Of a stretch of 58,272 nucleotides of DNA, positions 1,432-28,697 are shown piece by piece (positions within the stretch are counted from its first letter, which is position 1; each line of letters starts with the position of its first letter). The DNA comes from Bacteroidales bacterium (GTDB taxonomy: Bacteria > Bacteroidota > Bacteroidia > Bacteroidales > JAIPAH01): positions 1 through 58,272 of the forward strand of contig JAIPAH010000002.1 of NCBI GenBank assembly GCA_021740175.1. Direction: 5' to 3'. The translations under genes and the position numbers were made by a program. The notes below the pieces were generated by a model. It made no database searches, was not told the origin of the DNA, and was given only the letters and a program-made list of their open reading frames with translations.

Positions 1432-2301
1432 CTAACGAGCAATACGAAATCCACCGAATTCGCCATTGTACGTATTGCCAGGGCTATACCTTTCGCGTTT
1501 GGATACGCGACATCGGTTTACGTCACTGGCCGTGTAACCACCTCTCAGAACGCGTTCATCGCCTGATGAAGGGCCCTGCGGGTTGTTCTTAGGACTGTTG
1601 CTGTAATAGTTCTCACCGTACCAGTCATGGCACCATTCCATTACATTTCCACTCATGTCGCATATGCCTATTTCATTAGCTTGCTTTTGACCAACTTCGT
1701 GGGTTCGGTCGTCGCTGTTATCATAATACCATGCCACTTCATTCAGATTATCGCTGCCGCTATAGATGTAGTTCTGGCTTTGGTTGCCACCACGAGCGGC
1801 AAATTCCCATTCTGCCTCTCTGGGCAGCCTCCCTCCAGCCCATTTGGCAAAGGCGTTAGCTCCATACCAGCTTACACTCATCACCGGGTGATTTTCTTTA
1901 CCGCTTTCAACAACAAATTGTCCTTCGCTGTATTTGATTTGGCAATCGCTCCAAGCATTATTTTCTAAATCTTCCGTGATATATTCAACATTGCCATATT
2001 CATCGTCATTATAGCTGCCCTCACTGTTGCAGTTTATATCATTCAAAAACTCGGTGTATTGAGCGTTAGTTATTTCGTATTTGGTGATCTCAAAACTGCT
2101 TAAGGTAACTTTATGAAGAGGGGTTTCATCACTTTTACAATCAAATTGTTCATCCGTACATCCCATTTCAAAAGTTCCACCTCCAACATTGATCCATTGA
2201 ATATCGTTTGTACCATCGCTTGAATTACTACATGATTGGGTTGCAAACATGCCTATTGAAAGTGTTGCTATTGTTGCCATTGTAAAAATTACATTTTTCA
2301 T
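1432..2301 (-). CDS. Formylglycine-generating enzyme (SUMF1/FGE-sulfatase) family protein, probable lipoprotein
   Basis: Signal peptide ending ..FATQSC. Motifs HPVMSVSWYGANAFAKWAGGRLPREAEWEFAARGG, GNVMEWCHDWY and RVLRGG are typical of the FGE-sulfatase domain. Confidence 0.85.
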   Translation of the reverse strand: MKNVIFTMATIATLSIGMFATQSCSNSSDGTNDIQWINVGGGTFEMGCTDEQFDCKSDETPLHKVTLSSFEITKYEITNAQYTEFLNDINCNSEGSYNDDEYGNVEYITEDLENNAWSDCQIKYSEGQFVVESGKENHPVMSVSWYGANAFAKWAGGRLPREAEWEFAARGGNQSQNYIYSGSDNLNEVAWYYDNSDDRTHEVGQKQANEIGICDMSGNVMEWCHDWYGENYYSNSPKNNPQGPSSGDERVLRGGYTASDVNRCRVSKRERYSPGNTYNGEFGGFRIAR

Positions 2302-2329
2302 AGTAGATTATTTTTAAATTTAATTCAAA

Positions 2330-3355
2330 TTATTTATAGTAACCATTTTTCATTAAATATGTTCCAACATATTCCGTACCCTCTACATAAACATAAGTAT
2401 CCTCTTCATACTTACTTACTTCATTGATTTCATTTCTATCCATAACATAAGGTGAAAGTTCATCTGAAGCATCATCACCATATTTGTTTTTACCATTCAT
2501 AGTCACTTTTAGAGTTATTTTTTCTGCATCACTATAATCATCTACAATATTCCATATAACCTCAGCTAATTCTTGTGAAGTAAGTTCATAATCGTTATAT
2601 TCAATTTCAGTTTCTGCAGTTACAACTCCATCTTTTTCCTCAATCACATTGTATCCATTTCCTCCCAAAGATGTAAATAAAGTGATTAGAAAAACTACAA
2701 CAACAAAACCCGTAAGTTTTGGATTATTACTAATAGCTTGAAAAGATGTGTAAACTATTTGGTCTTTATTTAAGCCTTTAGCTTTTCGCATTTTTTCTTT
2801 GGAAAGGGGATACATATCAACTTTGGGGATACTTAAGTCAGGGTATAATTGATTCAAATCATATATTGAATTAGAGAGCAAATGTATTTGGTACTTATCG
2901 AAGTATGTTTCTGAAAATTTCGACTTAGCATCACTTATTAATTTGGGGTCTATAATTTCTTCTTTGAATTGTAGTTTTACATCTTGTCCATTCTTTTCGT
3001 AAATGATTTCACCATCTCCTTGCTCACTGAATTTTTTGAGCTTTGATAAAGGAATTGAATGATCCCGAGCTTTTTTATCCAATATTACTAATCTGTAATT
3101 GGTTAAAATAAACTCATTAGCAGAAAATAAAAAATACTCTTTCTTTAAAAGTGGAAATTCAAATAGTGCTTTTAGCTCTTTTTTAATTTCTGTGACACTC
3201 CAACAATATTCAGTCAACCTTTCAAAGGAAACATTTTTGAAACCATTAAACTCACTAAGAGGATCTTCTAAAGAATTATAGAAATCCCTCCAAAATTCTT
3301 CCGTAGTAGCGACATATTTATCAATATTTTCCTGTTTAAGTGTAATTTGTTCCAT
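2330..3355 (-). CDS. Hypothetical membrane-anchored protein
   Basis: 341-aa ORF with a single TM segment (LTGFVVVVFLITLFTSLGG). No family recognised. Confidence 0.5.
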   Translation of the reverse strand: MEQITLKQENIDKYVATTEEFWRDFYNSLEDPLSEFNGFKNVSFERLTEYCWSVTEIKKELKALFEFPLLKKEYFLFSANEFILTNYRLVILDKKARDHSIPLSKLKKFSEQGDGEIIYEKNGQDVKLQFKEEIIDPKLISDAKSKFSETYFDKYQIHLLSNSIYDLNQLYPDLSIPKVDMYPLSKEKMRKAKGLNKDQIVYTSFQAISNNPKLTGFVVVVFLITLFTSLGGNGYNVIEEKDGVVTAETEIEYNDYELTSQELAEVIWNIVDDYSDAEKITLKVTMNGKNKYGDDASDELSPYVMDRNEINEVSKYEEDTYVYVEGTEYVGTYLMKNGYYK

Positions 3356-3376
3356 AATATTTTGTTTTTATTTAAT

Positions 3377-3712
3377 TTAGTAAAACAAGTGTTTCTTAGA
3401 TTTATCTCTCCATCCAGCCTGATTTGGATAATCCACAAAACAGATTGTTAAATCTGCCTGATTCCGATAATCAACGAAATAAATTTTCTTTTTAGCTTGA
3501 TTAGGGTATTTTGTAAAGAACCATTTTCCATTATTTTTACCTGCTTGATTTTGGTATTTTACCCTGAATACCTTCAAATCAGCTTTTAATTCATAATCCG
3601 CCACAAAGACTTTCACCTCAGCTTGATTTTTATATTCTACTGAGTATACTTTTTGGGCTATAATATTGACCCAAAAGAAAAAACTTATACACATTAAAAT
3701 TATCTTCAACAA
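3377..3712 (-). CDS. Small secreted protein with internal (V/K)(D/E)Y.NQA repeats
   Basis: Signal peptide. Repeated motifs EYKNQAEVKVF, VKYQNQAG, KYPNQAKKKIYF, VDYRNQADLTICF and VDYPNQAGW. Confidence 0.5.
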   Translation of the reverse strand: MLKIILMCISFFFWVNIIAQKVYSVEYKNQAEVKVFVADYELKADLKVFRVKYQNQAGKNNGKWFFTKYPNQAKKKIYFVDYRNQADLTICFVDYPNQAGWRDKSKKHLFY

Positions 3713-3725
3713 ATTCTTTTATTGT

Positions 3726-4076
3726 TTACTTTTTGTGAAGTGTTACTCTTTGTCCACCAATGGATGTAGTTAGACTTTCACCATTTACATATCCAATTTT
3801 GACACTCCCAGTTTCATTATAAAGGTCTTCCCCCTTAACAATACCTTTTTGATATTCCGTATTACCTGCTATCGTTGTTTTTCCTTGCCAACTATCTCCA
3901 TTAATTGTGATTACAAGCTCAGCCGTATTGCCACTATAGGTATAAGTTCCATCAATTGTTTCTTTTTTTTCCGATTGTTCTGAATCATCGGATTGTTCTG
4001 AATCATTTGAATTGCAACTTATTGTAAGTTGAGTTGCAATAAATATTACTGTAAAAATTAATGTTAAATTTTTCAT
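3726..4076 (-). CDS. Small lipoprotein
   Basis: Signal peptide with lipobox ..LTISC, followed by an SDDSEQS acidic duplicated linker. Confidence 0.5.
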   Translation of the reverse strand: MKNLTLIFTVIFIATQLTISCNSNDSEQSDDSEQSEKKETIDGTYTYSGNTAELVITINGDSWQGKTTIAGNTEYQKGIVKGEDLYNETGSVKIGYVNGESLTTSIGGQRVTLHKK

Positions 4077-4412
4077 TTTAATTTATTTTTTTGTACCCTT
4101 AACTCATTTTCTTTTTCGGTTACGCCCGGTTTTTAAGCAGTTTCTGGACTCTACTTTTTATTTTGATGATAATAATTTTAATTCTCAAAGCACTTATAAT
4201 TAATAGTTAGTTTTCGTGTCAATTGGCTATATCGATTTCATAACTTAATCAAAAAAATGAAATCATGCTATGTACATTTCAAAAAGATGAATTTCTTTTG
4301 AAATAAATTTAAAAGATGATAAAGCTGAATACATGAATTAATATGTATAAACATGTTATCACATAATGATCATGAATAAAAGCAAGGAATCTGGTATTAA
4401 ATAGGCAGGAAA

Positions 4413-5705
4413 CTATTGGGAATTTTTACCAACTTGATACTTGAAATAACGTCTATCTGTCTGATCTCTATGACGTGAAATGATTTTCTTACCATCTTTC
4501 ATAGCAGATAAGGTGTTTAATTCATTGATTATACGTGCTCTTTGTGCTCTTCGATTATCATACGACGAATTGTCAATTTCAAAGATAGTATCAAGTTGCT
4601 CTGTCGAGAGTTCCAAAGATTTCATTTTAGAAATTATATTATAAATACGCTCCATCTCATTTGAATTAATGTGGCTACCCTCTTTTTTGGTCTTTTTACC
4701 TATTTTTCTTCGAATAAATATCCATGAAATCATTGAAAAAATTATAAAAGCGCCTACAATAATGATTATAGTAAATTTTGATGTTTGGTCTTTCTCTTCA
4801 ATGAAATTCACTTTCCCAATATTTTGTGCTGATTGAATAGCTTCATCCATATTTTTCATCAAAAGCTTATTATTGGAAGATTGCCAGTATAATCTATTGT
4901 CCGAAAAATAAAAATAAGGAGAGTCAGTGATCCCATAAGGTACATATTCTTTAAAATAAATTTTTGATGTAGATTTGTCTATAATTGTAAATCCGGTATT
5001 GGCTTTATATTTGTTATATAAAATCCAATAATTTGGGAGATTAAATGATAATTTATACCATTTGGTTCTCTGAAAATCCTCTTCTTTTAGGTTGATTTGA
5101 ATTTTTTTCCATTCTTTGTTATTTAACGTCAGCCAGTATCCGTTATATTCTCGACTCCTCTGGTTAGTTTTTTCGTCAGCATATTGTCCCAGAAAAGAAA
5201 CAATAGTATCCCCTTTTGTGCCTCTAAGTTCCCCACAATAGTTAGTGAGCGCATTATTTACACTTACAATTTCCCACTCCTTTTCCTCAAAGTCAAATTG
5301 AATAAGGTCGCTATGCCATGTCCAGTATCCATATCCACCCAGAGAATAAAGTTTATTGTTTATGATAAGAACCTGAGAATAAAAATTATATCCACTATAA
5401 ACTCCATCATAAAGATTAATCCACGTTGAATCTTTCCATACATGAACATCAAATGTGCCATCATTTAAGCCGTAAGTGGAATCCGCAATATTGAAAAAAT
5501 AGGTGGGTCTATCCTTGGAATGCTTTCTTGATGGGAACTTATTAATCATTCTTTCACTTAACGATTTTGGCAAAAACGAGAAGTTTTCGATTTCATCGAT
5601 TCTATCGATAACGATTTCTAATCGATAATCTTGGGAGGCATTAGAACTTAAAGATGATATTATTAAACTAAACAGAATGATTACAATTTGCCGAAGTCCT
5701 ATCAT
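4413..5705 (-). CDS. Single-pass membrane protein, Kelch-like extracytoplasmic part and basic cytoplasmic tail
   Basis: Signal peptide. Kelch-like W/Y-rich beta-strand motifs (LYSLGGYGYWTWHSDLIQFD). TM segment FTIIIIVGAFIIFSMISWIFI. C-terminal ..DRR..-containing region. Function unknown. Confidence 0.4.
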   Translation of the reverse strand: MIGLRQIVIILFSLIISSLSSNASQDYRLEIVIDRIDEIENFSFLPKSLSERMINKFPSRKHSKDRPTYFFNIADSTYGLNDGTFDVHVWKDSTWINLYDGVYSGYNFYSQVLIINNKLYSLGGYGYWTWHSDLIQFDFEEKEWEIVSVNNALTNYCGELRGTKGDTIVSFLGQYADEKTNQRSREYNGYWLTLNNKEWKKIQINLKEEDFQRTKWYKLSFNLPNYWILYNKYKANTGFTIIDKSTSKIYFKEYVPYGITDSPYFYFSDNRLYWQSSNNKLLMKNMDEAIQSAQNIGKVNFIEEKDQTSKFTIIIIVGAFIIFSMISWIFIRRKIGKKTKKEGSHINSNEMERIYNIISKMKSLELSTEQLDTIFEIDNSSYDNRRAQRARIINELNTLSAMKDGKKIISRHRDQTDRRYFKYQVGKNSQ

Positions 5706-7937: not shown

Positions 7938-8744
7938 TTATTTTTTATTAAATAAGGTTTGGGTATTTTTATTATCGAAGTATCTTGTACCAAATTTGAT
8001 ATGATGTTCCTTGTTATTCTGCTCACAAAATTTAATGACTTTTTGAGAACACTCTTCAAAGAATCTTCGCGCATCCTTAAAGTTATTTATCTCTGGATTG
8101 TAATTCATCCTTCCAAATACAATCTTGTCTGCAAATGAAACAATATCAAGAAGAGCATCAATTTTATTCTCTGGATCAATATTTGGTGTTGGATAAGGTT
8201 CAATGCTTACCCAAGTTCTAAATCCAGCTTCATGTAAATGTTTTAATGATTTCAATCTTTCCTCGAATGGAGCAGCGTATGGCTCGTAATTAGTTTTAAA
8301 ATGTTCGGTAAGTGATACCAGAGTAACACCATATTCATTTTCTGGACTAAAGTTTTTAAGTATTTCAGGCAATACACCTTTCGTAAGTGCAGTAATCTTT
8401 ATATCATTCTCATTTAACTTCTTAATGATTTTGAGGGTTAATTCCACTACTTCAGGATACTTATACATAAATGGATCCGTCGTAAAGCAGAGGTGAACGA
8501 AATTAATCTTATCCTTATATTTCGGAATTTCTTTATCCAGAATTTCTAATGAATTCTCAACCAATATTGGATTTATCCATTCATCATATGATTTAATTCT
8601 CCCAAACCGTTTTGCCATCATCATTGCATAACAAGGGTATTTACACCCATGTGCACAATTTTCTATATGATTCAAACACCAATCACCGTACTCAACATTA
8701 GTCTGATACAGCAGAGAAGTTCTTTTTTTCTTTTTTATTTTCAT
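7938..8744 (-). CDS. Radical-SAM-like / SplB-like protein with atypical three-Cys motif CX3CX3C
   Basis: N-terminal ..NCAHGCKYPCYAMMMAKR.. compares with canonical CX3CX2C and with the GC..CYA of SplB/Gp37-Gp68-like proteins. ATGA overlap with the upstream TcmP-like gene. Confidence 0.55.
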   Translation of the reverse strand: MKIKKKKRTSLLYQTNVEYGDWCLNHIENCAHGCKYPCYAMMMAKRFGRIKSYDEWINPILVENSLEILDKEIPKYKDKINFVHLCFTTDPFMYKYPEVVELTLKIIKKLNENDIKITALTKGVLPEILKNFSPENEYGVTLVSLTEHFKTNYEPYAAPFEERLKSLKHLHEAGFRTWVSIEPYPTPNIDPENKIDALLDIVSFADKIVFGRMNYNPEINNFKDARRFFEECSQKVIKFCEQNNKEHHIKFGTRYFDNKNTQTLFNKK

Positions 8745-9943
8745 TTTGTGGCAAAGTTAAGTCTATCATCCTCTTTGAATCCTCCCCTATTTTTCCTTTC
8801 TCTTTTTCGTGAACTTCCTTGTATTACTTCGAGAAGTTTATTTTCTTCAAGTTCCCTGAGCGCATCTTTGATCCCTGATTCAGTGAGAGGAACTTCATCA
8901 ATTATCTCATTTCTGAAGTCAAAATAAGTTATAACTCTTCCATTAAACTTCTCATAGATACAATTATCACAGCCTGTACTTCCAGATTTATAGCAAAAAA
9001 ATTTCCCACAAGAATCTGTTCGCTTATGTTTTGGAAGTAAAGAAAATAAATCTAATGCTCTTTTTTTTGATTGAAATTCCATATGCCCACCATAAACTGA
9101 TGCTAATTTGGACGATATGTCCTTTAAAATTGCGCATCCTTTATAGTGCTGACTAATATGGAAAAGATAATAGTAAGTTCTCCTTTGCTCTGGAAACTCA
9201 AATTTATAAGGAACTACATAAAAACCGTGTTTTTTGAATTGATCCCGGTAGCATTTTACAATCTCCCGTTCACGGCTTCTTCTGTCTGAGGTTATGCAAT
9301 CTTTCCACTCATCAGTACCAAAAAGATCGTTCAATGTTGATTCAAGCTGTGGAGAACTTAAAAATTCATTTATTCTTGTATACATAAAATTTATTAATAC
9401 CTCTGATTTTGGAGTTTGCATCAAACGAATGATCGTTGAGTGCTTAATTTTAAATCCGAATGGATCAACAAAAAAGAAGGTTGGGGCAAGTGTTTTCCCT
9501 GATTTCTCAACTTGATCGAGGATTTTGTTTATTTCTTTATCGAAATCACCGTGAACGTAAATTGGCATGAAATTAATTCCATGAAACTCTATAATTTTTT
9601 GTATATTTTGAAGATTCTCATCAGCAGAGTCTATTATCACAACTTTGGCATTATTTATTTTTTTCTTTTTTCGTAGAGAATATATATTTCGAATTGCGAT
9701 GATCGGCGAGCCAAAGTTTTTGGAAATATACTTACCTGCTGCTATGTCATCACTGTTATGATAAGCTCCAAGTCCACCAAAACCGTCTAAATAATTAACT
9801 CCACTATATTTACCAAGAATACTTAACCAAACAGGTAAATACTTTTTTAGTAAAGTGTGTTTAATTTCTGTTTGTTTCTGATAAGGCCAAGTAACAAAAT
9901 TTACGTTAGGCCATTTTATTGTACTATTATTTAATTCCCTCAT
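8741..9943 (-). CDS. tcmP: Three-Cys-motif partner protein TcmP-like (methyltransferase-fold) with C-terminal Cys-rich and wHTH-like tail
   Basis: WPYQKQTEIKHTLLKKYLPVWLSIL....YLDGFGGLGAY....GSPIIA....FFFVDPFGFK matches my recollection of the TcmP family (TIGR04474). Partnered with a three-Cys radical-SAM-like gene as that family is defined. C-terminal CGKFFC..(x7)..CDNC. Confidence 0.6.
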   Translation of the reverse strand: MRELNNSTIKWPNVNFVTWPYQKQTEIKHTLLKKYLPVWLSILGKYSGVNYLDGFGGLGAYHNSDDIAAGKYISKNFGSPIIAIRNIYSLRKKKKINNAKVVIIDSADENLQNIQKIIEFHGINFMPIYVHGDFDKEINKILDQVEKSGKTLAPTFFFVDPFGFKIKHSTIIRLMQTPKSEVLINFMYTRINEFLSSPQLESTLNDLFGTDEWKDCITSDRRSREREIVKCYRDQFKKHGFYVVPYKFEFPEQRRTYYYLFHISQHYKGCAILKDISSKLASVYGGHMEFQSKKRALDLFSLLPKHKRTDSCGKFFCYKSGSTGCDNCIYEKFNGRVITYFDFRNEIIDEVPLTESGIKDALRELEENKLLEVIQGSSRKRERKNRGGFKEDDRLNFATK

Positions 9944-10309
9944 TGTTTACTATTTTATTAACCATAAAAATAACAAATTTAAATATTCATAGTATTCTCT
10001 TGCATTTTGGAGAATATTTATTCAATCTTATTCACTTTATTATATAAATAATCCCATAGGGCTTGAGACACAATTATATTATCTTTGATTATAAATTTTT
10101 AGTATAAGCTTATATGAATTTATCATAAGGGGACAATAAAGAATAACATCATTCTATAAACAAAAATAACTATAAAATTTGATTTTCTCATTTAGTTTAT
10201 TACTTTAGTATAAATTTATTGATACAGATAACCCATTATTTTTTTGAGATGTAAAATAAAATTCAGACTATCAATGATATAGCAATTCAAATTTTTACTT
10301 TTATTTAAT

Positions 10310-12193
10310 ATGGCACATGAACAAAACATTAACAGCTATTTATTCGTCTTCTTCAAGTCCACTGAAAAAACAGATATTCAGAAAGGTGAGTTGTTGGCAT
10401 TAATAGAAATGCAGCATAATAATGTTATAATTGAATCATCAGAAATTGAAAATCTGGAAGGTGAAAATGACTTAAAATTCACAAATAATTCAATCATCGA
10501 TAAGAACAGGGATAAAATACTTGTTATTTTTTTGTCACAATCTGCTATTGTTTATACTTCTGTTAGGCTTGATATAAAAGAAATAATAAGAAGATCAGGT
10601 TATATTCATTCATGTGGTAAATTCATCTTCTTGTCAAAGTGGGATAATTTGAAGATCAAAGAAATAACAAACGATATAACTGCGTTTTTCAAAAAAGAAC
10701 AGCAAGAATACAAAGTACTATTTTATAAAGAATCTGATAATCCTATTAAAAACAAACTTGAAGGGCTCTTAATTGATGACAAACGCTATCATATAGAAAA
10801 TTATCATTTTAATACCGCTCAACAAAAAATTGAAATGTCTCTTGAAAATAATATAAAAAAACATGGAAAAGGATTCAAATCAGGAAATGAAAAAATATTT
10901 ATAATAAAAGAAAAAGGAATAGATAATAGTTCTCCATCAGTACTCTCTAATTTATATAATGACAGAAATATTATAGATTTTGCTATTGGGTATTTAAGTG
11001 AATACAAAAAAGATAATCCAATCCATGAATTAGATGAGGTAAAAGAAATGAAGCCTTTTTGGTCCGGGATATTTACAACTCCTCATAGGTTAATGAATGC
11101 AATGATTAATTTGGCAAAATTAGATGAAACTTCCACGGTTTTAGACCCATTTTGCCGTACAGGGACTATTTCAATTGAAGCCTCTCAAATAGGCTGCAAA
11201 TCAATTTCAAGTGATATATTTGGGTCTCAAGGTGCTAAAGATAATTACGATTTTTTGTGTTCTGGTTATAAGTTTTTCAAAAATACTGTTGAAAAAATCG
11301 ATAATCAAATTGATAATAACGAGCTAAATGAAGAGCTACAAAATAAAATTGGTGATGGCATAAAGGATAATAATAGGCAAGGATTACCAGTAGCTGATAA
11401 TGATGTGGCATTTAAAATAGAAAATTTTAGTAAAAGATTGCATTTTTACATTTTACGAAGATATGAAATGGAAAATAGACGGGGAAGTAGTTTTATTAAA
11501 CAACAAAACCGTAAGTCCAGAGATAAGAATGATAATGGAAAAAATCTACCAAATGAAGTTGATTTTATAAAAAGTTATATTAAGAATTCTAAAAATACAT
11601 TTGATTATACGCTTTGCGGGAAACAACTCAAATTATTCGAAGAACAATATAGAAAGACTAATGAACCTGTATTGAATTTAGATGTTGATACAAGTGGATG
11701 TTTTACTGATGGAAACTATTTAACTAAAAGAGTAGGTTATATTAATAAATCCGCAGAAAATAATATTTATCCTGTATTTAAAATAAATGATATTTGTGAT
11801 AAAAAAGATTTTTATAATATTGCAGAATCAACTATAGATGCAGTCGTCACAGATCCTCCTTATGGTTATGGGGAAGGAATAGATAAGGAAAAGGTAGAAG
11901 AGATATATAAATCATTAGTTGAAAAGTCTTTTTATTGGCTAAAACCATTTGGATATCTAATTATCTGTGCATTAGATAAAGTAAAAACTGGAAGAAAAGA
12001 AAATCTATTGTTTACTGAAAATATTCTTGAAATTATTAATGATATTGCAAAAAAAGAAAATGTTGAGTTTTTAATTAATGATGTTTTATCTACTAATAAA
12101 CATTTAAAAAATATATATTATTGGAAGAGTAAATATGCTTTAAACAGATCGATAATTGCTTTGCAAATTATTAAAAAAAATAAACAGCTATGA
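10310..12193 (+). CDS. SAM-dependent (D/N)PPY-type methyltransferase with large N-terminal domain and long insert
   Basis: Motif I VLDPFCRTGTISIEA (aa 277-291). Acidic motif II ..SSDI (aa ~300). Motif IV VVTDPPYGYGEG (aa 512-523). UPF0020/Trm11/RlmL-like or N6A/N4C DNA methylase. About 210 aa of low-complexity K/N/D-rich sequence lies between motifs II and IV. Confidence 0.7.
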   Translation: MAHEQNINSYLFVFFKSTEKTDIQKGELLALIEMQHNNVIIESSEIENLEGENDLKFTNNSIIDKNRDKILVIFLSQSAIVYTSVRLDIKEIIRRSGYIHSCGKFIFLSKWDNLKIKEITNDITAFFKKEQQEYKVLFYKESDNPIKNKLEGLLIDDKRYHIENYHFNTAQQKIEMSLENNIKKHGKGFKSGNEKIFIIKEKGIDNSSPSVLSNLYNDRNIIDFAIGYLSEYKKDNPIHELDEVKEMKPFWSGIFTTPHRLMNAMINLAKLDETSTVLDPFCRTGTISIEASQIGCKSISSDIFGSQGAKDNYDFLCSGYKFFKNTVEKIDNQIDNNELNEELQNKIGDGIKDNNRQGLPVADNDVAFKIENFSKRLHFYILRRYEMENRRGSSFIKQQNRKSRDKNDNGKNLPNEVDFIKSYIKNSKNTFDYTLCGKQLKLFEEQYRKTNEPVLNLDVDTSGCFTDGNYLTKRVGYINKSAENNIYPVFKINDICDKKDFYNIAESTIDAVVTDPPYGYGEGIDKEKVEEIYKSLVEKSFYWLKPFGYLIICALDKVKTGRKENLLFTENILEIINDIAKKENVEFLINDVLSTNKHLKNIYYWKSKYALNRSIIALQIIKKNKQL

Positions 12194-12570
12194 AAACATT
12201 TAGGTTAAGAAATAAAGTGGATAAAAAAATATTTTGGGGCGGATTAGATAGTAACAATATAATTAATGGATTAAAAGAACTCATTGATAAAATTGAGATT
12301 GTAAATGAAAACAAAATTAATATTGAATTAGATTTAGAAGGGGTAAACTCTATTGATCCATCATTTATTAAAAATGTATTTATTGATATAAAACAGAACT
12401 TATCTCATAAGCCTGACGTCAACTTTATTTTTAAAAATATTGAAAACGAGATGATTCTGTATAACTTAGATGCGTTATTTGAATATTATCATATTAGTGC
12501 CACTGCAAATAATATGTATGGAGAAGAAATTACTATAGGGGCCAAAAAGGATAATGCTGTGAATGTATAG
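12190..12570 (+). CDS. STAS-like (DUF4325-like) small protein
   Basis: ATGA overlap with the methyltransferase stop. IELDLEGVNSIDPSFIKNVF resembles the STAS/DUF4325 core. Weak call by eye. Confidence 0.4.
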   Translation: MKTFRLRNKVDKKIFWGGLDSNNIINGLKELIDKIEIVNENKINIELDLEGVNSIDPSFIKNVFIDIKQNLSHKPDVNFIFKNIENEMILYNLDALFEYYHISATANNMYGEEITIGAKKDNAVNV

Positions 12571-12634
12571 AAATACAACTTTATAAATATTTTTATAAAA
12601 GTTGTGATGAATATGAGATCTTAAAATGCATTTT

Positions 12635-14644
12635 TCATTTCGCCAGATAAGTTATCTGAGTATGTCTACATAGCCGCTTTTCTTGGTAGATTTCAGCTAA
12701 ATCAAAGGGGCCATCTGTTTTTTGGAAGAGGTCTAAACCTCTACCTAAAATAATTTTCCACCCATTATTCGTTTCAATGAATCTATCATGGATGCTATCA
12801 TCAAATTCATAAGTAAAATAAATCTCCATAGATTCAAGGGATTCCTGTATTTGCTTAAAAGATTCCTTAGCGTTTTCAAGGTATTCCTCGTTATTGTTAG
12901 TCACTAAGTGAAGCTTTACCATTTCTCCTTTTTCCTTTACATCTGCCACCAAGCGACAGAATTCCATGAAATTTCTCATTTGATAAGGCAATCTGATAAA
13001 AGGGTCAGTTAGTGTTATTTCTGTAGCGCCTTTTAAATAATCGGCAAAAAGCTTATAATATGAAATCCCTGTTTGGTTATCATGGATTATTTTTTGACTA
13101 TAATCTGGCAGTTTCTTTTTGGTATTTTTAGGCTCTTCCTTTTCCTCTGTATCAACCAGATCTTCCTCGCTTTTGTCTATTTGCTCAGGTAAATAATTCA
13201 AATACTCCAAAGTGTTTATGATTACTTTCTTGCCAGAGCTATTGATATTATATGAGAAGTCGACTGGCTCAAATGTTTCATCCATTTTAATTAGCTCTTG
13301 CTTAACCCGCTTTCTATTTTCAATAGCAAAATCAAAAAGCTCTTTCAGTTGATTTTCATCATATTGCCCGTCAGGATAAATCACTTTAATCAATCCGCTT
13401 ACTGTTTTGGCGATGGAATCTCTATCTCTACTGGTTAACGTGTCTGATAATTCGAAATATTCTTTATAAATGTTCGTATAATCTTCTTTTCTGAGATGTT
13501 TAAGGATCTCTGCTAAATAATCTACTATAAAACCGTAATTATTGGTAAACATCTCTGTTCTTAACTTATTGACTTCCCAGCCGGGCAAATAACATTGTAT
13601 TCGATCAAGAAAAGCTGAATCATGATATACATCAGGCAATGCTTCAAAAAGATCGCTGTGCTTCAGCATAAAGGCGACTGAATGTAAGGTATTACCCACA
13701 AAAGCCATCGAAGCATCAGCACCGTATACTTCAGTACCTCTTGAGAAGGATTTATTTGCCATGTAGTTTTTCATGATGTCTACAAGACCTTTATCGACTT
13801 TTTTTGTCGTCCCTGCAAATTCATCGTAGGCAACAACGTCCCAGTAACCAACTAAACCAATATCTCCAGTACTATTATTTACAAACAATTTGGCCTTAGT
13901 TACTTCCCCTCCACTAATTAAAATACCGTGAGGTGACATTTCAGAGTAAATATGAGATTTTCCTGTTCCTTTAGGGCCAAGTTCAATGAGATTATAGTTA
14001 TTCTCTGCAAATGGAACTAAACGGGTTAATTGGATAAATTTAGATCGCTTATTGAAATGTTCCGGGTTCAGCCCAATGGATCGCATTAGGAGATCCAACC
14101 ATTCATCAGTTTTAAATAACTTTCTGGCCTCTTTAAATTCTTCTATATCAATTTGAGCTACTTGAATGGGTTTTATACTTTCAAGTATCCAAGGACTTTG
14201 CTCTTTTTCCTCAGGAACAATATAACCCAATGTAACTATGCACCAAACCCCTGATGATAGAAGTTTTTTGTGTCTTTTAACAATGTCCGGATCAACAATT
14301 ACTTTTTTTACTCCAAGGTTGGCAAAGGCAGCTTCATACAAACCTCTCCTGTCATTCAATTTAACCGAAACCTTGTCTATTATTCTATGCGATCCCTTTT
14401 CTTTGATAACTGACTTAATATACTGGGCTTCATCCCGGTGAACAAAGTGCTCTGCGATAATCTTTTTTACTGACTCCACCCCTGCATTTATAGTTTCTTC
14501 GTCATCTGTAGCACAATATTGCCCCAATAAGTATTCTAAGACATAGGTTGGAACAACAGCATTCCCTTTAACTAATTTGGTAAGATCCTTTCTGACTACC
14601 TTACCGCCATAGTGTTCGTTGACTTTTTTATCCAGTGTATCCAT
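12635..14644 (-). CDS. brxL: BREX BrxL-like AAA ATPase, variant with MIT_C/PLD-like C-terminal domain in place of Lon protease domain
   Basis: The N-terminus LDKKVNEHYGGKVVRKDLTKLVKGNAVVPTYVLEYLLGQYCATDDEE and Walker A GPKGTGKSH match BrxL over about 470 aa. The last ~150 aa (TDPFIRLPYQMRNFMEFC...SIHDRFIETNNGWKIILGRGLDLFQ) resemble the MITD1 C-terminal PLD-like domain. Last gene of the BREX operon. Confidence 0.85.
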   Translation of the reverse strand: MDTLDKKVNEHYGGKVVRKDLTKLVKGNAVVPTYVLEYLLGQYCATDDEETINAGVESVKKIIAEHFVHRDEAQYIKSVIKEKGSHRIIDKVSVKLNDRRGLYEAAFANLGVKKVIVDPDIVKRHKKLLSSGVWCIVTLGYIVPEEKEQSPWILESIKPIQVAQIDIEEFKEARKLFKTDEWLDLLMRSIGLNPEHFNKRSKFIQLTRLVPFAENNYNLIELGPKGTGKSHIYSEMSPHGILISGGEVTKAKLFVNNSTGDIGLVGYWDVVAYDEFAGTTKKVDKGLVDIMKNYMANKSFSRGTEVYGADASMAFVGNTLHSVAFMLKHSDLFEALPDVYHDSAFLDRIQCYLPGWEVNKLRTEMFTNNYGFIVDYLAEILKHLRKEDYTNIYKEYFELSDTLTSRDRDSIAKTVSGLIKVIYPDGQYDENQLKELFDFAIENRKRVKQELIKMDETFEPVDFSYNINSSGKKVIINTLEYLNYLPEQIDKSEEDLVDTEEKEEPKNTKKKLPDYSQKIIHDNQTGISYYKLFADYLKGATEITLTDPFIRLPYQMRNFMEFCRLVADVKEKGEMVKLHLVTNNNEEYLENAKESFKQIQESLESMEIYFTYEFDDSIHDRFIETNNGWKIILGRGLDLFQKTDGPFDLAEIYQEKRLCRHTQITYLAK

Positions 14645-14646: not shown

Positions 14647-17142
14647 TTAAATATCATCAAAATCACTTGTAAATGAAATGTTTAAGGTATAATAATATTC
14701 TTTATAATGCTTCCATTGGTTTGAACCTTCAACAGGTTCTTCCAATATTAATTTAACACGCTGATTCTTATATTTACCACTTGCGTTGGCACTTAATTGG
14801 AATCGGTGTTTTACCTCTCGTGTTCTTTCCAGCCCTTCTGTTTTATCAAATTTGTAGGTGAATTGATCACTCAGAATAGTTCCATCGTCTGCATATAAAG
14901 CTGCCCGAATGGTTCTGGGGAGTGTTTTTTCCGTTACCAATTCGGTTTGTAGAAAGGATACAGCAAGCAAATTGGTAGTTATTTTATCTGATGACTTAAT
15001 CACGTCTATTTCAACTTGCTTGGTAGTATCTTTTCTTACCTTGGTTACTTTCACCAGTGGAACAACTATTTCTTGTAGGGTAGCCCCACCGTGCACATAT
15101 CTTGAGCCTGAACCTTTTACTCGAATCCGATTAATTGATTTTGGAATTAAAACTTCTCCTTTTCCGTTTAATCCCAGCTGCTCTGAAGTAAAGTGTTTTG
15201 TGCTCTTTTCACCATCAAGGTTCTGTCCGATGACATACCTGCGGGATTCTTTCCAAATATTCCCCTTCACCTTTCCTGCGGAGAAATCGCTTTCATCAAG
15301 CTCATGATTTTGGTATAAAAAGCCATGATCAGCCGTAATGAGCATATTATACCCATTCATATTGCTGATTTTCTTCACCACATCTAACAAATAATTGATT
15401 TCTGCCTCAACAGCTTCTGTTAGCTTGTCCTCTGAAGTTTTATCGTCACCTACTTTATCTATCCGGTTGTGAAAGATATAAATCAAGTCATGCTTTTTAA
15501 CAAAGTCCCTCCCATCTGTACTGGCATTCATAGCCATAAAATCCTCTGCATTGATAGCGGTTGCTTTTGCTTCTTGGTAATTTTCTAAAACATTTTTCCG
15601 GCCCTGTAAACCTGAAGCTGATTTACCATCCACTAAAACATTATCGCTTTCAGGCTCTATTGAAATATGCTTATGGGGTAACAAATTGGCCATTCCTAAC
15701 TGGGTGTATGATGGTAGACTTGTAACCATATAATTCATTTGACCTTCAAAACGTTTTTCGTTTTGTATTTTTCGGAAATATTCCCATCCACATTCATACC
15801 TCAGCGCATCTGAAACCACTACAAATACTCTCTGTTTTTTTGTAATAAAGCTTTTCACGTGGCCTGTAAAAAATCTGTTTTGAGAAATTTGGTGAATATC
15901 ACCCCACGAATCAATATTGTCGATGATTTTTTGCCAGTTGTTATTGAAATGGAAAAGCCAGTCGTTACGATAAACCTTTTCTACCTTATCAAGTAACTCC
16001 TCTAATGCTCGATTCTGTTTAGTTAAGCGATAATTATGAATAAACTTCCGGTAATCGTAGTCTATTTCGAAATAAGTATCCGTATAATTTTTGATACCTT
16101 GTTGGAATGATTCAATCTGATCCTGATTATGTTTTTTAACTAATTTGATGAGGTCATTTCCATATTTAAGACAGGCATAGAAATACTGATACTCATTATA
16201 CCAGTATTTGTACTCTCTTTTCTTGATAAACTGGTCAACCTTCCCATTAATATAAACTTCATTGATTATAAAATAAGAAAGATCGGAAATCACTTTTTGA
16301 TCGATGATTTCAAATAGGTCATCTTCTATAACATCATCAACTGTTGCTTCGTTAAGCTTGGCTTCCACGTTCAATTCGTCCGCAATCTTATTCGATAAAG
16401 CTTTAAATGATTCCCTGTAGGTGATTGAATCTTTCCAAACCGAGAGTAAAATTTTGGACTCATTTGAAATACCTGTCCGTTCTCCAAGCGAAAAGTTATT
16501 CTTAAAAACTTCAATTAGAAAATCATAAATAGAAGGATTGTCTGAAATATAATTGAATCGTCTTTCAATCTCTTTCCAATAAAATGATTTTAAGTTGTAG
16601 CGTTCTAATTCCTTGTTATACCTTTTACTTTCATTGGTGAAGGCAGTCGCATGAGCCATGATGAAAGAGGTTAATCCAATATTCTCCACCCCGAAAAGTA
16701 TAGCCAGCATTTTATAGCGGATGGCCTTGTGCTCATCATTTTTCCCGAGTAAATCTTTTAATTTCGCTCTTCTTTCCTTGTTAGCGAAAAACTCAATATG
16801 CTCACCAATGAGTTCTTTAAAATGAAATTCCAGCCCCACCTCCTGACAATACAGGGCTTCTTGATCACTATGAAAGACAAAGTAAGCCAATTCAAGGTCT
16901 AATAGCCAATTGTTGTGATGTTCTGGTTTATCATAAGGAAAATACAGCAGGAACTTATCTTTTGGTTTCTCTCTTTCGATGAGATGTTTTAAATAAAATT
17001 CGTTGTTATCAACCTCAACCTTTTCCACATCTCCTAATGATAATTCAGAGAATTCATGGTAAAGTTTTTTCTCTTTGTCATACCAAAATATTACTCGGTA
17101 ATCCTGAAATTTTTTATTTAGGTTTTCCGCTATTTTACTCAT
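14647..17142 (-). CDS. pglZ: BREX alkaline-phosphatase-like protein PglZ
   Basis: 831 aa. PglZ-type motifs VVVSDALRYE and ITADHGF. Positioned between pglX and brxL, with an ATGA overlap with the pglX stop. Confidence 0.9.
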   Translation of the reverse strand: MSKIAENLNKKFQDYRVIFWYDKEKKLYHEFSELSLGDVEKVEVDNNEFYLKHLIEREKPKDKFLLYFPYDKPEHHNNWLLDLELAYFVFHSDQEALYCQEVGLEFHFKELIGEHIEFFANKERRAKLKDLLGKNDEHKAIRYKMLAILFGVENIGLTSFIMAHATAFTNESKRYNKELERYNLKSFYWKEIERRFNYISDNPSIYDFLIEVFKNNFSLGERTGISNESKILLSVWKDSITYRESFKALSNKIADELNVEAKLNEATVDDVIEDDLFEIIDQKVISDLSYFIINEVYINGKVDQFIKKREYKYWYNEYQYFYACLKYGNDLIKLVKKHNQDQIESFQQGIKNYTDTYFEIDYDYRKFIHNYRLTKQNRALEELLDKVEKVYRNDWLFHFNNNWQKIIDNIDSWGDIHQISQNRFFTGHVKSFITKKQRVFVVVSDALRYECGWEYFRKIQNEKRFEGQMNYMVTSLPSYTQLGMANLLPHKHISIEPESDNVLVDGKSASGLQGRKNVLENYQEAKATAINAEDFMAMNASTDGRDFVKKHDLIYIFHNRIDKVGDDKTSEDKLTEAVEAEINYLLDVVKKISNMNGYNMLITADHGFLYQNHELDESDFSAGKVKGNIWKESRRYVIGQNLDGEKSTKHFTSEQLGLNGKGEVLIPKSINRIRVKGSGSRYVHGGATLQEIVVPLVKVTKVRKDTTKQVEIDVIKSSDKITTNLLAVSFLQTELVTEKTLPRTIRAALYADDGTILSDQFTYKFDKTEGLERTREVKHRFQLSANASGKYKNQRVKLILEEPVEGSNQWKHYKEYYYTLNISFTSDFDDI

Positions 17143-19862
17143 TTTATTTGTGATGTATCAATCCACTCAAAGTTTCTTACTTTGTCTTTTGTTTTCTTAT
17201 CATTAAGTCCATTTACTTCTTTTACAGCTTTTCCGAACTTGTTGTAGTTCACTAATACCCCATCATCTAAATCTATGTTGATCCGCTCTGTAGCCAATGG
17301 ATATAGTATCTCCCTGTCATATTCCTTAACTTCCCAAAGCATCTTATCAATTCTTTCATCTTCTTTTATGGCCTCTGTTTTTTCACGGGTACTTCCACTT
17401 ACCTTGAGTTCTTGTAAGTGTTCTTTTCTAATGCTCAATTTCTCCGTGAATTCTCTCAAATATTTATTCAAAATATTATTTATGGTATCGGGAGTATACC
17501 TGTGCATATAAATTAACACGTTGAAAACGCCATTAGGTGAAGAAAGCATCCAGTAAATAGGTCTCTTTTTGTACCGTTTAATATGGTCTTTATAAAAGTC
17601 TTTCATGAAATACTTACGAATAGGTTTCCCCAGAGAATCTTCCACAAAGGCGAGGTTATTTTCAAAATTTTCTTCTCCAAAGGTGACTTTCAAAAACTGA
17701 TGGAATCGACCCACTATATCGTCTTCAAACCATTCATCGTCCAATACAGGAATTACATTGTCATCATCGGGTAAAAAGGAAATTTCATTTTGAGGCTTTC
17801 CAACTTTTTCAAGGTAATCTTGCAGAGTTTCTCCTTGATTGGCGAGAATAAGTCCTTCTTTATCCAATGAATATCGCCCAAACATACATCCAACGGCATA
17901 ACTCACAAATTGGGCAATGACTTCATCAGCATGAAATATTAGTTGTCCATTTTCTATACTCGTTTCTTGTTGAAGTATTGTAATATTCTCTAATGGTACA
18001 TTAGGAGATAATTCATTTTGCAAACCATAAATTTCAATGAATTGTTGGTTTACTTTTTCTTCATTACGATGAAGTTGGAAATATTTATTTCTCCAATATT
18101 GTTTATAAAGATCAAATGATTCTTCTATATCTTGAGCTTTTAAGCTGCATAATTCATTTTTGGAAAAAAACCATGATGATTCTCTTTGGTTCCAATCGGA
18201 TTTAGCAATGTCAATGCAAGAAGATACAATGACTTTTAAATTATTATCATCAAATCCTGAGTATGGTATTTTTGAAACATCACCTACATTAAAAGTCAAA
18301 GTGGGGCTTAATACCTCAAGAAATGATAAAACAACTTTTGAGTTTAAAAAACCAATTAACTCTTCATTAGTACTATTAATAATAGGTCCCCTTGAATTTG
18401 GAATAAAACCAAACTCTTGCATTCTAAAAGCAGGGGCTCCAGAGCTAACATCACTGAAAGATATTCCTTCCATACAGTAATAGTTATAATTCCTAATATA
18501 TCTTGACCAACTATTTGTAGCTGGATCATTAGGATTGTTTATTAACCAATCTTTTATTTCTTCACCGTCATTTTCCCAATTTATTATGAAATCGTTGTTA
18601 CCATACCATTTTCTAAATCTTCCTCCTTTTGTCATAGGCAACCATTTTTTGGACTCTTTCAGATCATTTCTGCTTTTATTTGAGAAATCTAACTTTGAAA
18701 ATGAGACTTCGTGCCAAAAACGCAAAAAACGATTATTATTGCCTGTAGAAAGACCTGCTCTTGGTGGGTAAATATGTCTCAAATCTGGTTCTTTAGAAAA
18801 TGCTTCAATCTGCTTTCTGTTTAACCAATAACCGATTCGATAATCAGGTATATTCTTAAAATCATCCTGCAAGGCTGTGTACAACCATGAAGAATTTTTA
18901 TTATTTACTGCTTCTATAGCCTTTGGGGCTTGGTTTTTAGAACCTTTAAAATCACTTAGACGAATATAACTTCCTTTAGCTAAATATTCAGGCTGTTTCT
19001 TTCTTAAAGTAAATGTGCAAATTGGCACAGTAGCTCCTTCGAATCCTGAATATTCAAGTTGAACAAGATTATTTATGAAATAGTTATCAATAATTATTTT
19101 TCTTAACTCTTTATAATTAGAAATGAACATCCAAACAAAAGGAGTCATGTTTCCTGAAAGTCCATTATCATTGGCAAACTCAAGACACCTTATTATGAAA
19201 GAAGCAAATAAATCTGTTTTAGTTGCTGGAAAATACTTCTCCACATATTTTTTCAATTCAGCTTCCATTCGAGATGCATTAAGATAAGGTGGATTTGTCA
19301 CAACCACATCATAAGTTCTGGACAGATAATCAGCTTGTAGTTTTAATCGTTGCTGTTGCTGACCAAATAAAGACTCCTCCTCAGTTTTTATTTCCTCATA
19401 TTCCTCTCGATTGATTTTAATCAGGGAACCCAAGACTTTGGCATTTTTGAATTTGGGGTGGTTTTCGATATTTTGAAAAGAGGTAATATTGGGGTGAGCA
19501 CCTTTTCTAAGAAACTTTCTCTGATTTTGGCGGGCTTTCATCATTAAGGAAAAAGCAGCCATTTGTGCAGCCCTATCATCTATATCAATACCGAATAAAT
19601 TTTTTGTAATGATCAATTCAGGTATTTCTGATGGATTGTATCCTTCTTCTTCATAAATTTTATACAGGAAATCAAATGCATAACTGACTATATGTCCACT
19701 ACCCACGCAAGGATCAAAAAATTGAATTTCTTCAGGAGAGGTTAATTTCCTTTTGGGAATCAATTCTTCATTCTGAGGCTTGATATAGAATTGCAAATGC
19801 TCCGTTATTCTGGTATTTGGTCTTGCTTCCTTCCATAGTTGTCCTAATGTATTATCTACCAA
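17139..19862 (-). pseudogene. pglX: pglX 3' fragment (907 codons, from LVDNTLGQLW to stop) of the disrupted BREX methyltransferase
   Basis: Contains the catalytic VVTNPPYL motif and a long PglX-like C-terminal region. It has no start codon of its own and is read only as a continuation of the recombinase ORF 17139..21473. It joins seamlessly to the 5' fragment at 30096-30812. Confidence 0.85.
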
Positions 19863-19870
19863 ATACTGAA
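19863..19870. repeat. Junction core ATACTGAA (recombinase-proximal att site)
   Basis: On the coding strand ..AATTTTATTCAGTAT|TTGGTAGATAAT... The octamer is identical to the one at 30096-30103. Confidence 0.7.
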
Positions 19871-21473: not shown

Positions 21474-21526
21474 TGTTCTAATCTATTCTGAGTTTATAAA
21501 TCTTATCATTTATTATTTGTTTGGTT

Positions 21527-21811
21527 CTACTTTGCTGACTTTTTAGGGCTCCATAATTTCTTACAATCCTGGCATTCGTAAGTGCCTCCGGCAAATGGTG
21601 ATATTAAACCGAAAAGAAATGCTCCCGCCCCAATAACAATCAACGGAATACCGATAATCGGAAACATTAGAAGCCAAATTCCGCATCCTGTAAGACCAAG
21701 ACCGCCTAAAATAAATTTAATTGTATGCTCTGCTGCTGTGGTTTTCTTCTGTCTGGTTGAACCGCATTGCGGGCATTGTGGGACTTCATTTTGCTCATTT
21801 TGATTTGTCAT
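21527..21811 (-). CDS. Small zinc-ribbon membrane protein
   Basis: CPQCGS near the N-terminus and CQDCKK near the C-terminus, with two TM helices between them. Confidence 0.5.
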   Translation of the reverse strand: MTNQNEQNEVPQCPQCGSTRQKKTTAAEHTIKFILGGLGLTGCGIWLLMFPIIGIPLIVIGAGAFLFGLISPFAGGTYECQDCKKLWSPKKSAK

Positions 21812-21829
21812 TGTTCTAATTTTTTTGGA

Positions 21830-22465: not shown

Positions 22466-22702
22466 AATGTAGATTTTTAGTGTAAATATTTTATAGTTTA
22501 TTTAATTGTTTTTATATAATACCTTTAAAAAATCAATTAGATTTTATATATTATATAATATTTGCTATAAAATTAATATAAAAATTGGAACATTCCTGAC
22601 ATATGACCGAATAATTTTAAAATTATTTGTTAAAAATATTTATCACATTCAGCATCCACAAGCAATCTCAGCACTTCCATAACACGAACAATATTTTACA
22701 AG

Positions 22703-23413: not shown

Positions 23414-23414
23414 T

Positions 23415-23726: not shown

Positions 23727-23885
23727 TTATTCTTATTATTTATCCATTAGTAAAAATTAGATTAAAAATTGTGTGCAATCTCTCTCCCTTATTTATGTTT
23801 ATAATATATTTTATATAGTATTTTATATTGTATTTAATACGGGTTCTAAAACTTATTGATAACCAATTAATTATAAAGATTTTTA

Positions 23886-25657: not shown

Positions 25658-25704
25658 AATACATCATTTTATCATTCTACATTCTGTCCATTCCTTTTTT
25701 ATAA

Positions 25705-25773: not shown

Positions 25774-25850
25774 CCTATATGTTGCCCGGCGGTCGTAATC
25801 CAGTACAAAAACTACAACCCTTTTTTTGGCTTTCCGGGCAATGTCTTTAG

Positions 25851-26972: not shown

Positions 26973-26982
26973 TGTTGCCTCC

Positions 26983-28663: not shown

Positions 28664-28697
28664 TTATATTAAAATTTAATTATCAATTAGTGCCAGT

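Follow-up and report, generated by a model that had tools for sequence, protein, structure and literature searches.

The closest described relatives of the locus treated here are two-gene systems: the PADLOC candidates PDC-M30 and PDC-M41 are pairs of TcmP, the three-Cys-motif partner protein, with a protein of the DUF5131 family, and NCBIfam likewise defines TcmP by its partnership. The partners for which TcmP was named were, as we take it, of the DUF5131 type, with the cysteine motif CX6CX2C. The PDC candidates come from a guilt-by-embedding approach, and most of them are unvalidated (PMC12988326). The locus in question occupies positions 7938 to 12570 of contig JAIPAH010000002.1 (assembly GCA_021740175.1), of which positions 1 to 58,272 were analyzed; this whole stretch is referred to below as the window. 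The locus encodes TcmP together with a radical S-adenosylmethionine (SAM) enzyme of the spacing CX3CX3C and, facing away from these two genes, an amino-methyltransferase and a small STAS-like protein. The principal result of this analysis is that the region is one mobile module of two translationally coupled gene pairs. The sequence-only reading of the window had proposed a candidate new defense or DNA-modification module; novelty holds for the four-gene form and its methylase/STAS add-on, while the core pair is already represented in NCBIfam and PADLOC.

The locus and the adjoining gene are arranged as follows, the four coding regions being taken from the list of open reading frames (ORFs).

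7938-8744, minus strand: radical-SAM-type three-Cys enzyme, 268 amino acids (aa).
8741-9943, minus strand: TcmP, 400 aa.
9944-10309: divergent intergenic region, 366 bp, the presumed promoter region of both operons.
10310-12193, plus strand: DPPY amino-methyltransferase, 627 aa.
12190-12570, plus strand: STAS/DUF4325-like protein, 126 aa.
12571-12634: spacer of 64 bp that separates the STAS stop from the convergent brxL stop.
12635-14644, convergent with the STAS gene: brxL (PADLOC BrxL, 984 bits).

The layout described in the sequence-only reading is reproduced in every element: all four ORFs are found at these coordinates in two translationally coupled pairs, each with a 4-nt ATGA overlap; the 366-bp divergent region is indeed AT-rich (19.4% GC versus 36% for the window); and the stops of the 126-aa gene and brxL lie 64 bp apart.

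The evidence that these four genes belong together comes from their co-occurrence in other genomes. Nine contigs carry a close relative of the methylase with enough flanking sequence to be informative: the window, L081, L083, L085, L087, L090, L091, L155, and L156. A three-Cys gene stands beside the methylase in all nine, and TcmP is present in seven (the window, L081, L083, L085, L087, L090, and L091), which hold the full set. The methylases are only 37–55% identical to that of the window, the flanks are unrelated, and the genes occur in three different orders. The loci outside the window are listed below by the three-Cys partner or gene order, followed by the context.

L081: radical-SAM partner with the canonical CX3CX2C spacing; next to Mrr and a ubiquitin-like system.
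L083: DUF5131 partner; Draconibacterium sediminis (JRHC01), which has an isolate-type genome record and which we take to be cultured.
L085: DUF5131 partner; metagenome contig with a tyrosine recombinase and two additional radical-SAM enzymes encoded close by.
L087: methylase, STAS, TcmP, and DUF5131, in this order; metagenome contig with genes for a Y1 transposase and a CI-type repressor nearby.
L090: DUF5131 partner; cargo on a conjugative element.
L091: DUF5131 partner; metagenome contig with housekeeping-type flanks.
L155: DUF5131, then the methylase and a STAS-like gene; short contig that ends upstream, where TcmP would lie.
L156: methylase, an 85-aa ORF, and DUF5131 (2172-5238); 5.4-kb contig with no TcmP in it.

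The last of these may represent a TcmP-less variant or a contig-end effect. Among short contigs, L094-L096 have a STAS gene after the methylase, and L097 has TcmP downstream of it. The presence of a three-Cys gene in nine of nine contigs, together with TcmP in seven, indicates that the four genes form one functional unit, and the co-occurrence elsewhere that the sequence-only reading had made its test is borne out. Methylases 52–55% identical to that of the window are paired with partners of the CX3CX3C, CX3CX2C, or CX6CX2C type; that such similar methylases go with all three types implies that the three-Cys enzymes are homologous and interchangeable within the module.

It should be noted that the association runs one way. 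The methylase/STAS pair was sought in 135 TcmP/CX3CX3C loci (80 genomic and 55 viral) and was found in none of them. At L089, whose radical enzyme is the nearest to that of the window (74% identity), TcmP is present and the methylase pair is lacking. As a separate observation, in L085 (12526-17712) and L086 (4977-10163) two more radical-SAM genes, encoding proteins of 272 and 403 aa, stand directly beside one four-gene module. Each is paired with a gene for a 334-aa protein of no known family, and a DHO_dh/Fer4 protein is encoded in the adjoining position; the 272-aa radical-SAM protein is a distant relative of the window enzyme (E = 1e-17).

The 268-aa enzyme is characterized by the motif N-C30-AHG-C34-KYP-C38-YA. 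The sequence-only reading had described this as CX3CX3C instead of the canonical CX3CX2C of radical-SAM proteins, and the motif is read directly from the translation in this form. Residues C30, H32, G33, C34, P37, C38, Y39, and A40 are invariant in 20 bacterial and archaeal homologues that share only about 60% identity overall, and their alignment gives the family consensus C-[AS]-H-G-C-x-[YF]-P-C-Y-A. Conservation across such divergent homologues means that the extra residue is a family trait and not an error or a product of chance; the protein is therefore no ordinary CX3CX2C enzyme. The departure from the canonical motif does not exclude radical-SAM chemistry, since non-canonical cluster spacings occur in bona fide members of the superfamily. 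Moreover, the Pfam Radical_SAM model (PF04055) matches residues 25-181 at 43.3 bits, well above its gathering score of 29.5. The family is large and widespread: more than 6,700 database proteins are homologous to the window enzyme, with identities of about 60% extending across Clostridia, Patescibacteria, Nitrospirota, Woesearchaeota, Methanosarcinales, and others, and it has no assigned function. The sister family DUF5131 is likewise uncharacterized.

The relation to that sister family can be stated with some precision. The DUF5131 model (PF07505) gives 16.7 bits, below its gathering score of 28.9, and the motif C-x6-C-x2-C-Y-A is lacking. Nevertheless, in an alignment with DUF5131 and the canonical CX3CX2C partner, 21 positions are invariant, among them the three cysteines and the tyrosine that follows. 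Thus, the same three cysteines appear in three spacings, CX6CX2C in DUF5131, CX3CX2C in L081, and CX3CX3C in the window, and the window enzyme is best regarded as belonging to a sister family of DUF5131, not to DUF5131 itself. For this reason, the earlier suggestion that the window shows the very partner arrangement for which TcmP was named stands in part: a three-Cys gene does adjoin tcmP with a 4-nt overlap, whereas the naming partners, as noted above, are taken to be DUF5131 proteins.

The predicted structure of the enzyme points toward spore photoproduct lyase (SPL). In a Foldseek search of the PDB with an AlphaFold2 (AF2) model (predicted local distance difference test score, pLDDT, 86), the six best matches were all SPL, with template modeling (TM) scores of about 0.6 and about 11% sequence identity. 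The Foldseek probability was 1.00 for matches of the model to SPL, SuiB, HydE, LipA, and PFL-AE, and the predicted fold is a partial TIM-barrel. The label "photolyase-like" given in the sequence-only reading is therefore apt at the level of the predicted model, and some homologues carry the annotation "DNA repair photolyase". The likeness to SPL is structural only, as the Pfam SPL model (PF20903) gave no match to the window enzyme at E ≤ 0.1. A search of PDB sequences with the radical-enzyme profile returned nothing, a weak match was seen to TYW1, a tRNA-modifying radical-SAM enzyme, and no homologue was found in the plasmid collection searched.

The partner, TcmP, is a clear member of its family: TIGR04474 (three-Cys-motif partner protein) matches residues 24-277 at 168.1 bits against a cutoff of 53, and the PADLOC models PDC-M30A and PDC-M41A match at E = 3.7e-33 and 8e-11. 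Four motifs are shared by 38 TcmP homologues, namely QTxxKH, Y(I/L)DGFGGxGxY (resembling motif I of methyltransferases), GSP, and PTFFFxDPFG (resembling motif IV). The N-terminal domain is predicted to adopt the class-I SAM-methyltransferase fold, and the C-terminal part carries a winged helix-turn-helix (wHTH) domain, Pfam GMT-wHTH, at residues 329-374. The methyltransferase fold proposed in the sequence-only reading agrees with both structure prediction (AF2 model, pLDDT 89) and Foldseek, which returned class-I SAM methyltransferases only, with RlmJ at ranks 4, 6, and 24; a fold search of BFVD likewise returned only generic methyltransferases. Homology to RlmJ itself was considered and rejected. 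Only motif I aligns, the search of PDB sequences gave E = 2.3, and hhalign assigned a probability of 30%. Since this similarity is insignificant, what we claim for TcmP is a fold class and not membership in a family. PDB sequence searches with TcmP and with the STAS-like protein gave insignificant matches only. A cysteine-rich insert, SCGKFFCYKSGSTGCDNC (C-x5-C-x7-C-x2-C), precedes the wHTH at residues ~316-333; the window protein shares it with its three closest relatives (P0142-P0144) alone. The insert is modeled with low confidence and may be a zinc knuckle.

TcmP and the three-Cys enzyme form an autonomous and widespread unit. With one genome scanned per species, at least 587 bacterial and archaeal species proved to carry the radical enzyme. 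Eighty genomic loci were fetched, and in 61 of the 71 that have a same-strand upstream ORF this ORF is TcmP, directly upstream of the radical enzyme; the same arrangement is seen in 50 of 55 viral loci on IMG/VR contigs. Fused forms also exist, both of TcmP with the radical-SAM enzyme (P0161 and others) and of TcmP with SPL (P0215). The two partners differ in their rate of divergence: TcmP homologues are 30–40% identical to one another, as compared with about 60% for the radical enzyme. A divergent TcmP beside a conserved partner is the pattern of a diversifying recognition subunit with a constrained effector or catalyst.

The genomic surroundings of the pair are dominated by restriction-modification (R-M) genes. 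Pfam assignments of 106 immediate neighbors from 22 genomic loci are led by ResIII (7), N6_N4_Mtase (4), N6_Mtase (4), Eco57I (4), and SWI2/SNF2 (3), together with domains of type I HsdR. PADLOC matches among the genomic neighbors are mostly type I, II, and III methylases and type I restriction enzymes, and clustering of the neighbors gives the same R-M picture, with the addition of Schlafen/AlbA_2 and SAVED proteins. Among 95 neighbors from about 27 viral contigs, the most frequent families are N6_N4_Mtase (7), HTH_3 (7), serine recombinase (6), and the M78 (ImmA/IrrE-type) peptidase (4), and the endonucleases MvaI/BcnI and HindIII also rank among the top families. Judged by these gene families, the viral-contig neighborhoods are lysogeny and integration modules with R-M cargo. 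R-M families thus top the neighbor lists of genomic and viral loci alike, which bears out, in qualitative counts, the proximity to defense genes expected in the sequence-only reading. A gene abuts the pair downstream in 68 of 126 loci, and 17 of these 68 genes encode DNA methylases, an association that is frequent and far from universal.

Gordonia phage ThankyouJordi (L093, 3263-5841) has a TcmP-like gene beside a gene of the DUF5131 family. The former, gene 42, is annotated "methyltransferase"; only 3 nt separate it from the immunity repressor gene 43, which it follows, and expression of gene 42 in the lysogen is therefore probable. It converges on gene 41, the gene for the DUF5131 protein (338 bits). 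The site of gene 42 is the usual place for prophage-encoded defense genes in actinophages. Among GenBank phage records, 15 of 50,697 match, and two of these are close relatives.

The second gene pair is much rarer. In the 627-aa methylase, motif I (DPFCRTGT) lies at about residues 279-286 and motif IV (DPPYGYGE) at residues 515-522, with an insert of about 200 aa between them, and the methylase motifs are preceded by a conserved domain that makes up the N-terminal 250 aa or so and has no assigned fold. Both DPFxxTGT and DPPYGYGE are kept without change by 17 relatives. The protein passes UPF0020 (46.6 bits against a gathering score of 22.3) and, marginally, N6_N4_Mtase (27.5 against 26.7); together with the invariance of both catalytic motifs, this secures its earlier description as a DPPY methylase. 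The PADLOC model mad2 matches at E = 1.7e-11, a likeness at the motif level only; mad2 is the self-marking methylase of the methylation-associated defense system (MADS; bioRxiv 10.1101/2023.03.30.534895). The nearest relatives in the PDB, again at the motif level only, are the Trm11/Trm-G10 m2G tRNA methyltransferases. The family is rare: a word-indexed search of 5.8 billion proteins returned 20 relatives, and a profile search run exhaustively over 1.84 billion cluster representatives returned 84 at E ≤ 1e-30. Distant full-length relatives (630–730 aa, E 1e-37 to 1e-57; L092, L153, and L157) have no TcmP or three-Cys neighbors, which indicates that the linkage is specific to the close methylase clade. 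Distant relatives (L153, L154, L157, and L092) were seen in other contexts, one of them downstream of a ClpB-like AAA+ ATPase; the architecture of an N-terminal domain with a split methylase is therefore broader than the four-gene module.

The 126-aa protein encoded next to the methylase scores 20.8 bits with DUF4325 (PF14213), just under the gathering score of 23, and its orthologues score 25.8 (L081), 25.0 (L090), and 22.9 (L083). Two orthologues above the gathering score speak for its earlier assignment as STAS/DUF4325-like. The orthologues align with one another, some with C-terminal extensions, in a manner consistent with DUF4325 membership, and small homologous STAS-like proteins follow the methylase in L081, L083, L085, L087, L090, L091, L094-L096, and L155.

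The reading of these observations that we prefer, with a probability of roughly 0.4, is that the module works on DNA in the manner of an R-M system, in which the methylase marks and the radical enzyme attacks. An N-methyl mark of self would be written by the DPPY methylase, for which the STAS-like subunit would provide gating or targeting. TcmP would bind DNA and hand a nucleotide to the radical enzyme, and the latter, by means of a 5'-deoxyadenosyl radical, would change or damage this nucleotide wherever the DNA does not bear the proper mark. In the two-gene form, which is far commoner, both recognition and marking would fall to TcmP, which would resemble Mod of type III systems, with the radical enzyme as the Res-like effector. 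The fast evolution of TcmP is what leads us to read it as the nucleic-acid recognition subunit, and the fact that SPL, the best match of the radical enzyme, acts on DNA is counted in favor of a DNA substrate. What we infer here is the DNA substrate, catalytic activity of any kind, which part protects and which attacks, and an anti-phage phenotype. A more explicit version of this scheme is decidedly doubtful: TcmP would read or flip a nucleotide of DNA that bears no mark, the SPL-like enzyme would then abstract a hydrogen atom, with a lesion, crosslink, or strand break as the result, and the self mark of the four-gene variant would be written by its dedicated N-methylase, gated by the STAS-like subunit.

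Several observations weigh against an R-M-like role. Profile searches detected a nuclease domain in none of the four proteins. A dedicated methylase is missing from more than 95% of TcmP/three-Cys pairs, so that a scheme in which the methylase protects and the radical enzyme kills cannot be general. Motif IV of TcmP, DPFG, does not conform to the (D/N/S)PP(Y/F) signature that known amino-methyltransferases share, and TcmP may for this reason not methylate at all. The CX3CX3C motif, whose cysteines are the presumed ligands of a [4Fe-4S] cluster, may likewise not support reductive cleavage of SAM. The relatives of the methylase, Trm11, Trm14, and RlmL/K, and the fold neighbor RlmJ are RNA methyltransferases, which makes an RNA substrate conceivable. 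The enrichment in defense genes is qualitative, being based on family counts from 22 genomic and about 27 viral loci and not on a matched background. Finally, for TcmP, DUF5131, PF07505, PDC-M30/M41, and DUF4325 the searchable literature yielded annotation-table mentions only, with no function described and no experimental validation of either PDC candidate. Two such mentions of TcmP/DUF5131 concern Sinorhizobium meliloti, one beside the Hna defense gene (PMC12445080) and the other in prophages (PMC12429752). Neither the methylase/DUF4325 add-on nor the CX3CX3C family in its own right was found to be described in the literature searched.

The alternative that survives best, possible if unlikely, involves no killing. 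Joined in the four-gene form by the methylase, TcmP and the radical enzyme would be a writer of hypermodification, placing a complex, covalent modification of bases on the DNA of the element or its host; the modification would shield that DNA from restriction enzymes or serve as an epigenetic mark, and a restriction partner would be located elsewhere or be absent. In phages, radical-SAM enzymes contribute to the hypermodification of thymidine after replication. All three enzymes of the module are SAM-dependent modifiers in which a nuclease was not detected, the pair is carried by prophages and a conjugative element, and a two-enzyme writer, too, could combine a conserved catalyst with a recognition subunit that varies. 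However, the prophage pair sits in a lysogeny/integration module, the usual site for host-protective defense cargo and not for self-protection in the lytic cycle, and matches among the GenBank phage records are scarce (15 of 50,697, with two close relatives).

A role in RNA modification is quite improbable. The module would modify tRNA or rRNA, either tuning or protecting translation during conflict or inactivating RNAs of phage or host. The nearest characterized relatives of the methylase are indeed m2G tRNA and rRNA methyltransferases, RlmJ is among the best fold matches of TcmP, and the weak TYW1 match of the radical enzyme points the same way; yet these likenesses are confined to motifs and folds, with scores far under the cutoffs (70 versus 317 for TIGR01177). 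TcmP, moreover, has a wHTH, the radical enzyme is closest to a DNA lyase, and the patchy, mobile, R-M-linked distribution is unlike that of housekeeping RNA modification. The related idea of a housekeeping RNA methylase was dropped on account of the rarity of the methylase and its mobile context.

Prokaryotic viperins are a precedent for radical-SAM enzymes in defense, and the location of the present genes in defense islands would fit an analogous small-molecule factory, in which the radical enzyme would make a chain terminator or toxic nucleotide analogue and the proteins of methyltransferase fold would tailor it. We consider this very improbable: the predicted fold is nearest to SPL and not to viperin, the wHTH of TcmP is of a DNA-binding type, and its quick diversification suggests recognition of a macromolecule. 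Nor is a nucleotide kinase consistently linked, a thymidylate kinase being present at L155 only. Lastly, defense islands pack unrelated systems together, the two pairs are divergently transcribed here, and the methylase pair is missing from all 135 TcmP/CX3CX3C loci, but mere chance adjacency of two unrelated pairs is effectively refuted by the three-Cys gene adjoining the methylase in all nine informative contigs despite 37–55% identity and varied flanks, gene orders, and three-Cys families.

The neighbor of the module in the window is a phage-defense locus. Upstream of brxL lie pglZ, pglX, brxC, brxB, and brxA, which complete a type 1 bacteriophage exclusion (BREX) set. No BREX genes were found near other four-gene loci in the flanks fetched (as much as 10 kb on either side at L081, L083, L085, L087, L090, and L091, and 5 kb in total at L155). 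A role of the four-gene unit as a BREX accessory was rejected, since these loci lack BREX, and its adjacency to BREX in the window is accordingly incidental, a matter of co-location in a defense island.

The 366-bp intergenic region has three matches to TAnnTTTG, at 10080 (plus strand), 9981, and 10168 (both minus strand), where 0.36 would be expected at the window-wide rate. This motif, which we take to be the -7 promoter consensus of Bacteroidota, is here consistent with divergent promoters. A scan for sigma-70 promoters and terminators gave fewer matches than shuffled sequence and was uninformative for this AT-rich sequence, which is probably from Bacteroidota; the search for repeats in the 366-bp region returned low-complexity AT matches only. 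Within the STAS/brxL spacer, at 12575-12605, there is an AT-rich hairpin, ACAACTTT-N15-AAAGTTGT, which is possibly a bidirectional terminator.

Other features of the window deserve mention independently of the module. The pglX ORF (17139-21473, minus strand, 1444 aa) joins an N-terminal serine-recombinase part in frame with an Eco57I/N6_Mtase part; the former comprises Resolvase at residues 10-153 and Zn_ribbon_recom at residues 274-326. Between brxC and pglX is an insert of about 9 kb (region 21500-30812), which encodes a tyrosine recombinase (21830-22465), a DnaD-like replisome organizer (24002-25657), and an HTH_3 protein (27737-28219). From its gene content, the BREX locus looks either interrupted by a mobile element or placed under recombinase control. 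Just upstream of brxA, a 247-aa protein (36135-36878, minus strand) matches S-adenosylmethionine lyase at 22.8 bits, which falls short of that model's gathering score (28), and has a weak PHROG match to "SAM-dependent methyltransferase", which is curious beside the SAM-dependent BREX. A tRNA gene at 37402-37476 (minus strand), the sole Rfam match in the window, marks the far end of the BREX island; no direct repeat of its end of 12 nt or more was found near ~7.5 kb, where an island boundary was sought. Farther on, at 41000-48000, GC content rises from about 0.30 to about 0.48 over large plus-strand ORFs (41427-42884, 43402-44649, and 44680-47817). No rRNA match was found in this segment, which by its GC content is compositionally foreign.

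The four-gene variant is, in our opinion, a useful genetic handle, as a dedicated methylase with a regulator-like subunit could allow marking to be separated from attack. If the more explicit scheme, with hydrogen abstraction by the SPL-like enzyme, is true, TcmP/three-Cys systems would be the first case of radical-based restriction of DNA, and a function would be given to the large orphan families DUF5131 and those resembling COG1533. A radical restriction effector and a new DNA hypermodification would each amount to a new biochemical principle in prokaryotic conflict, and either would provide a function for the CX3CX3C motif.

The comparison with known systems can now be drawn together. Like PDC-M30 and PDC-M41, the first pair of the window consists of two overlapping genes on the same strand, includes a clear TcmP member, and belongs to a class found in mobile elements and defense islands. 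It differs in the partner, which is of the CX3CX3C sister family, fails DUF5131 and passes Radical_SAM, and in the addition of the methylase/DUF4325 pair. The B components of the PDC models match only the N-terminal 100 residues of the window partner, and weakly (M41B, 4.3e-5; M30B, 1.5e-4); PADLOC would therefore probably not call the window pair. SplB and the COG1533 "DNA repair photolyase" group provide the best structural match, and the TcmP-SPL fusion P0215 links the two directly. DUF5131 and SPL fall into one megacluster at RadicalSAM.org (PMC9477430). In contrast to SplB, the window enzyme is shorter (268 versus 340 aa), differs in cluster spacing, and is only about 11% identical in sequence; its family is obligatorily paired with a protein of methyltransferase fold and is mobile, patchy in distribution, and not linked to sporulation. 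RlmJ, the 23S rRNA m6A2030 methyltransferase, shares with TcmP the class-I fold and the motif I context Y-L/I-D-x-x-x-G-x-G-x-Y, whereas TcmP has DPFG in place of DPPY and possesses a wHTH in addition.

With type III R-M systems (Mod/Res), the module has in common a variable recognition subunit of methyltransferase fold and a conserved effector, and the TcmP fusions are analogous to type IIG enzymes. As in these and, at a greater distance, in other systems based on methylation, such as MADS and BREX, a DPPY methylase is available for self-marking, and the genes are selfish, mobile, and located among R-M genes. Helicase and nuclease are absent, however, and the putative effector is a radical-SAM enzyme; the module thus falls outside the definition of R-M, which calls for a cognate endonuclease, and the likeness is one of logic and context. 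A radical-SAM effector for restriction has no known precedent. What is new in the window relative to the systems described is the presence of four genes instead of two, the non-canonical cluster motif, and a dedicated, rare methylase with its STAS-like partner.

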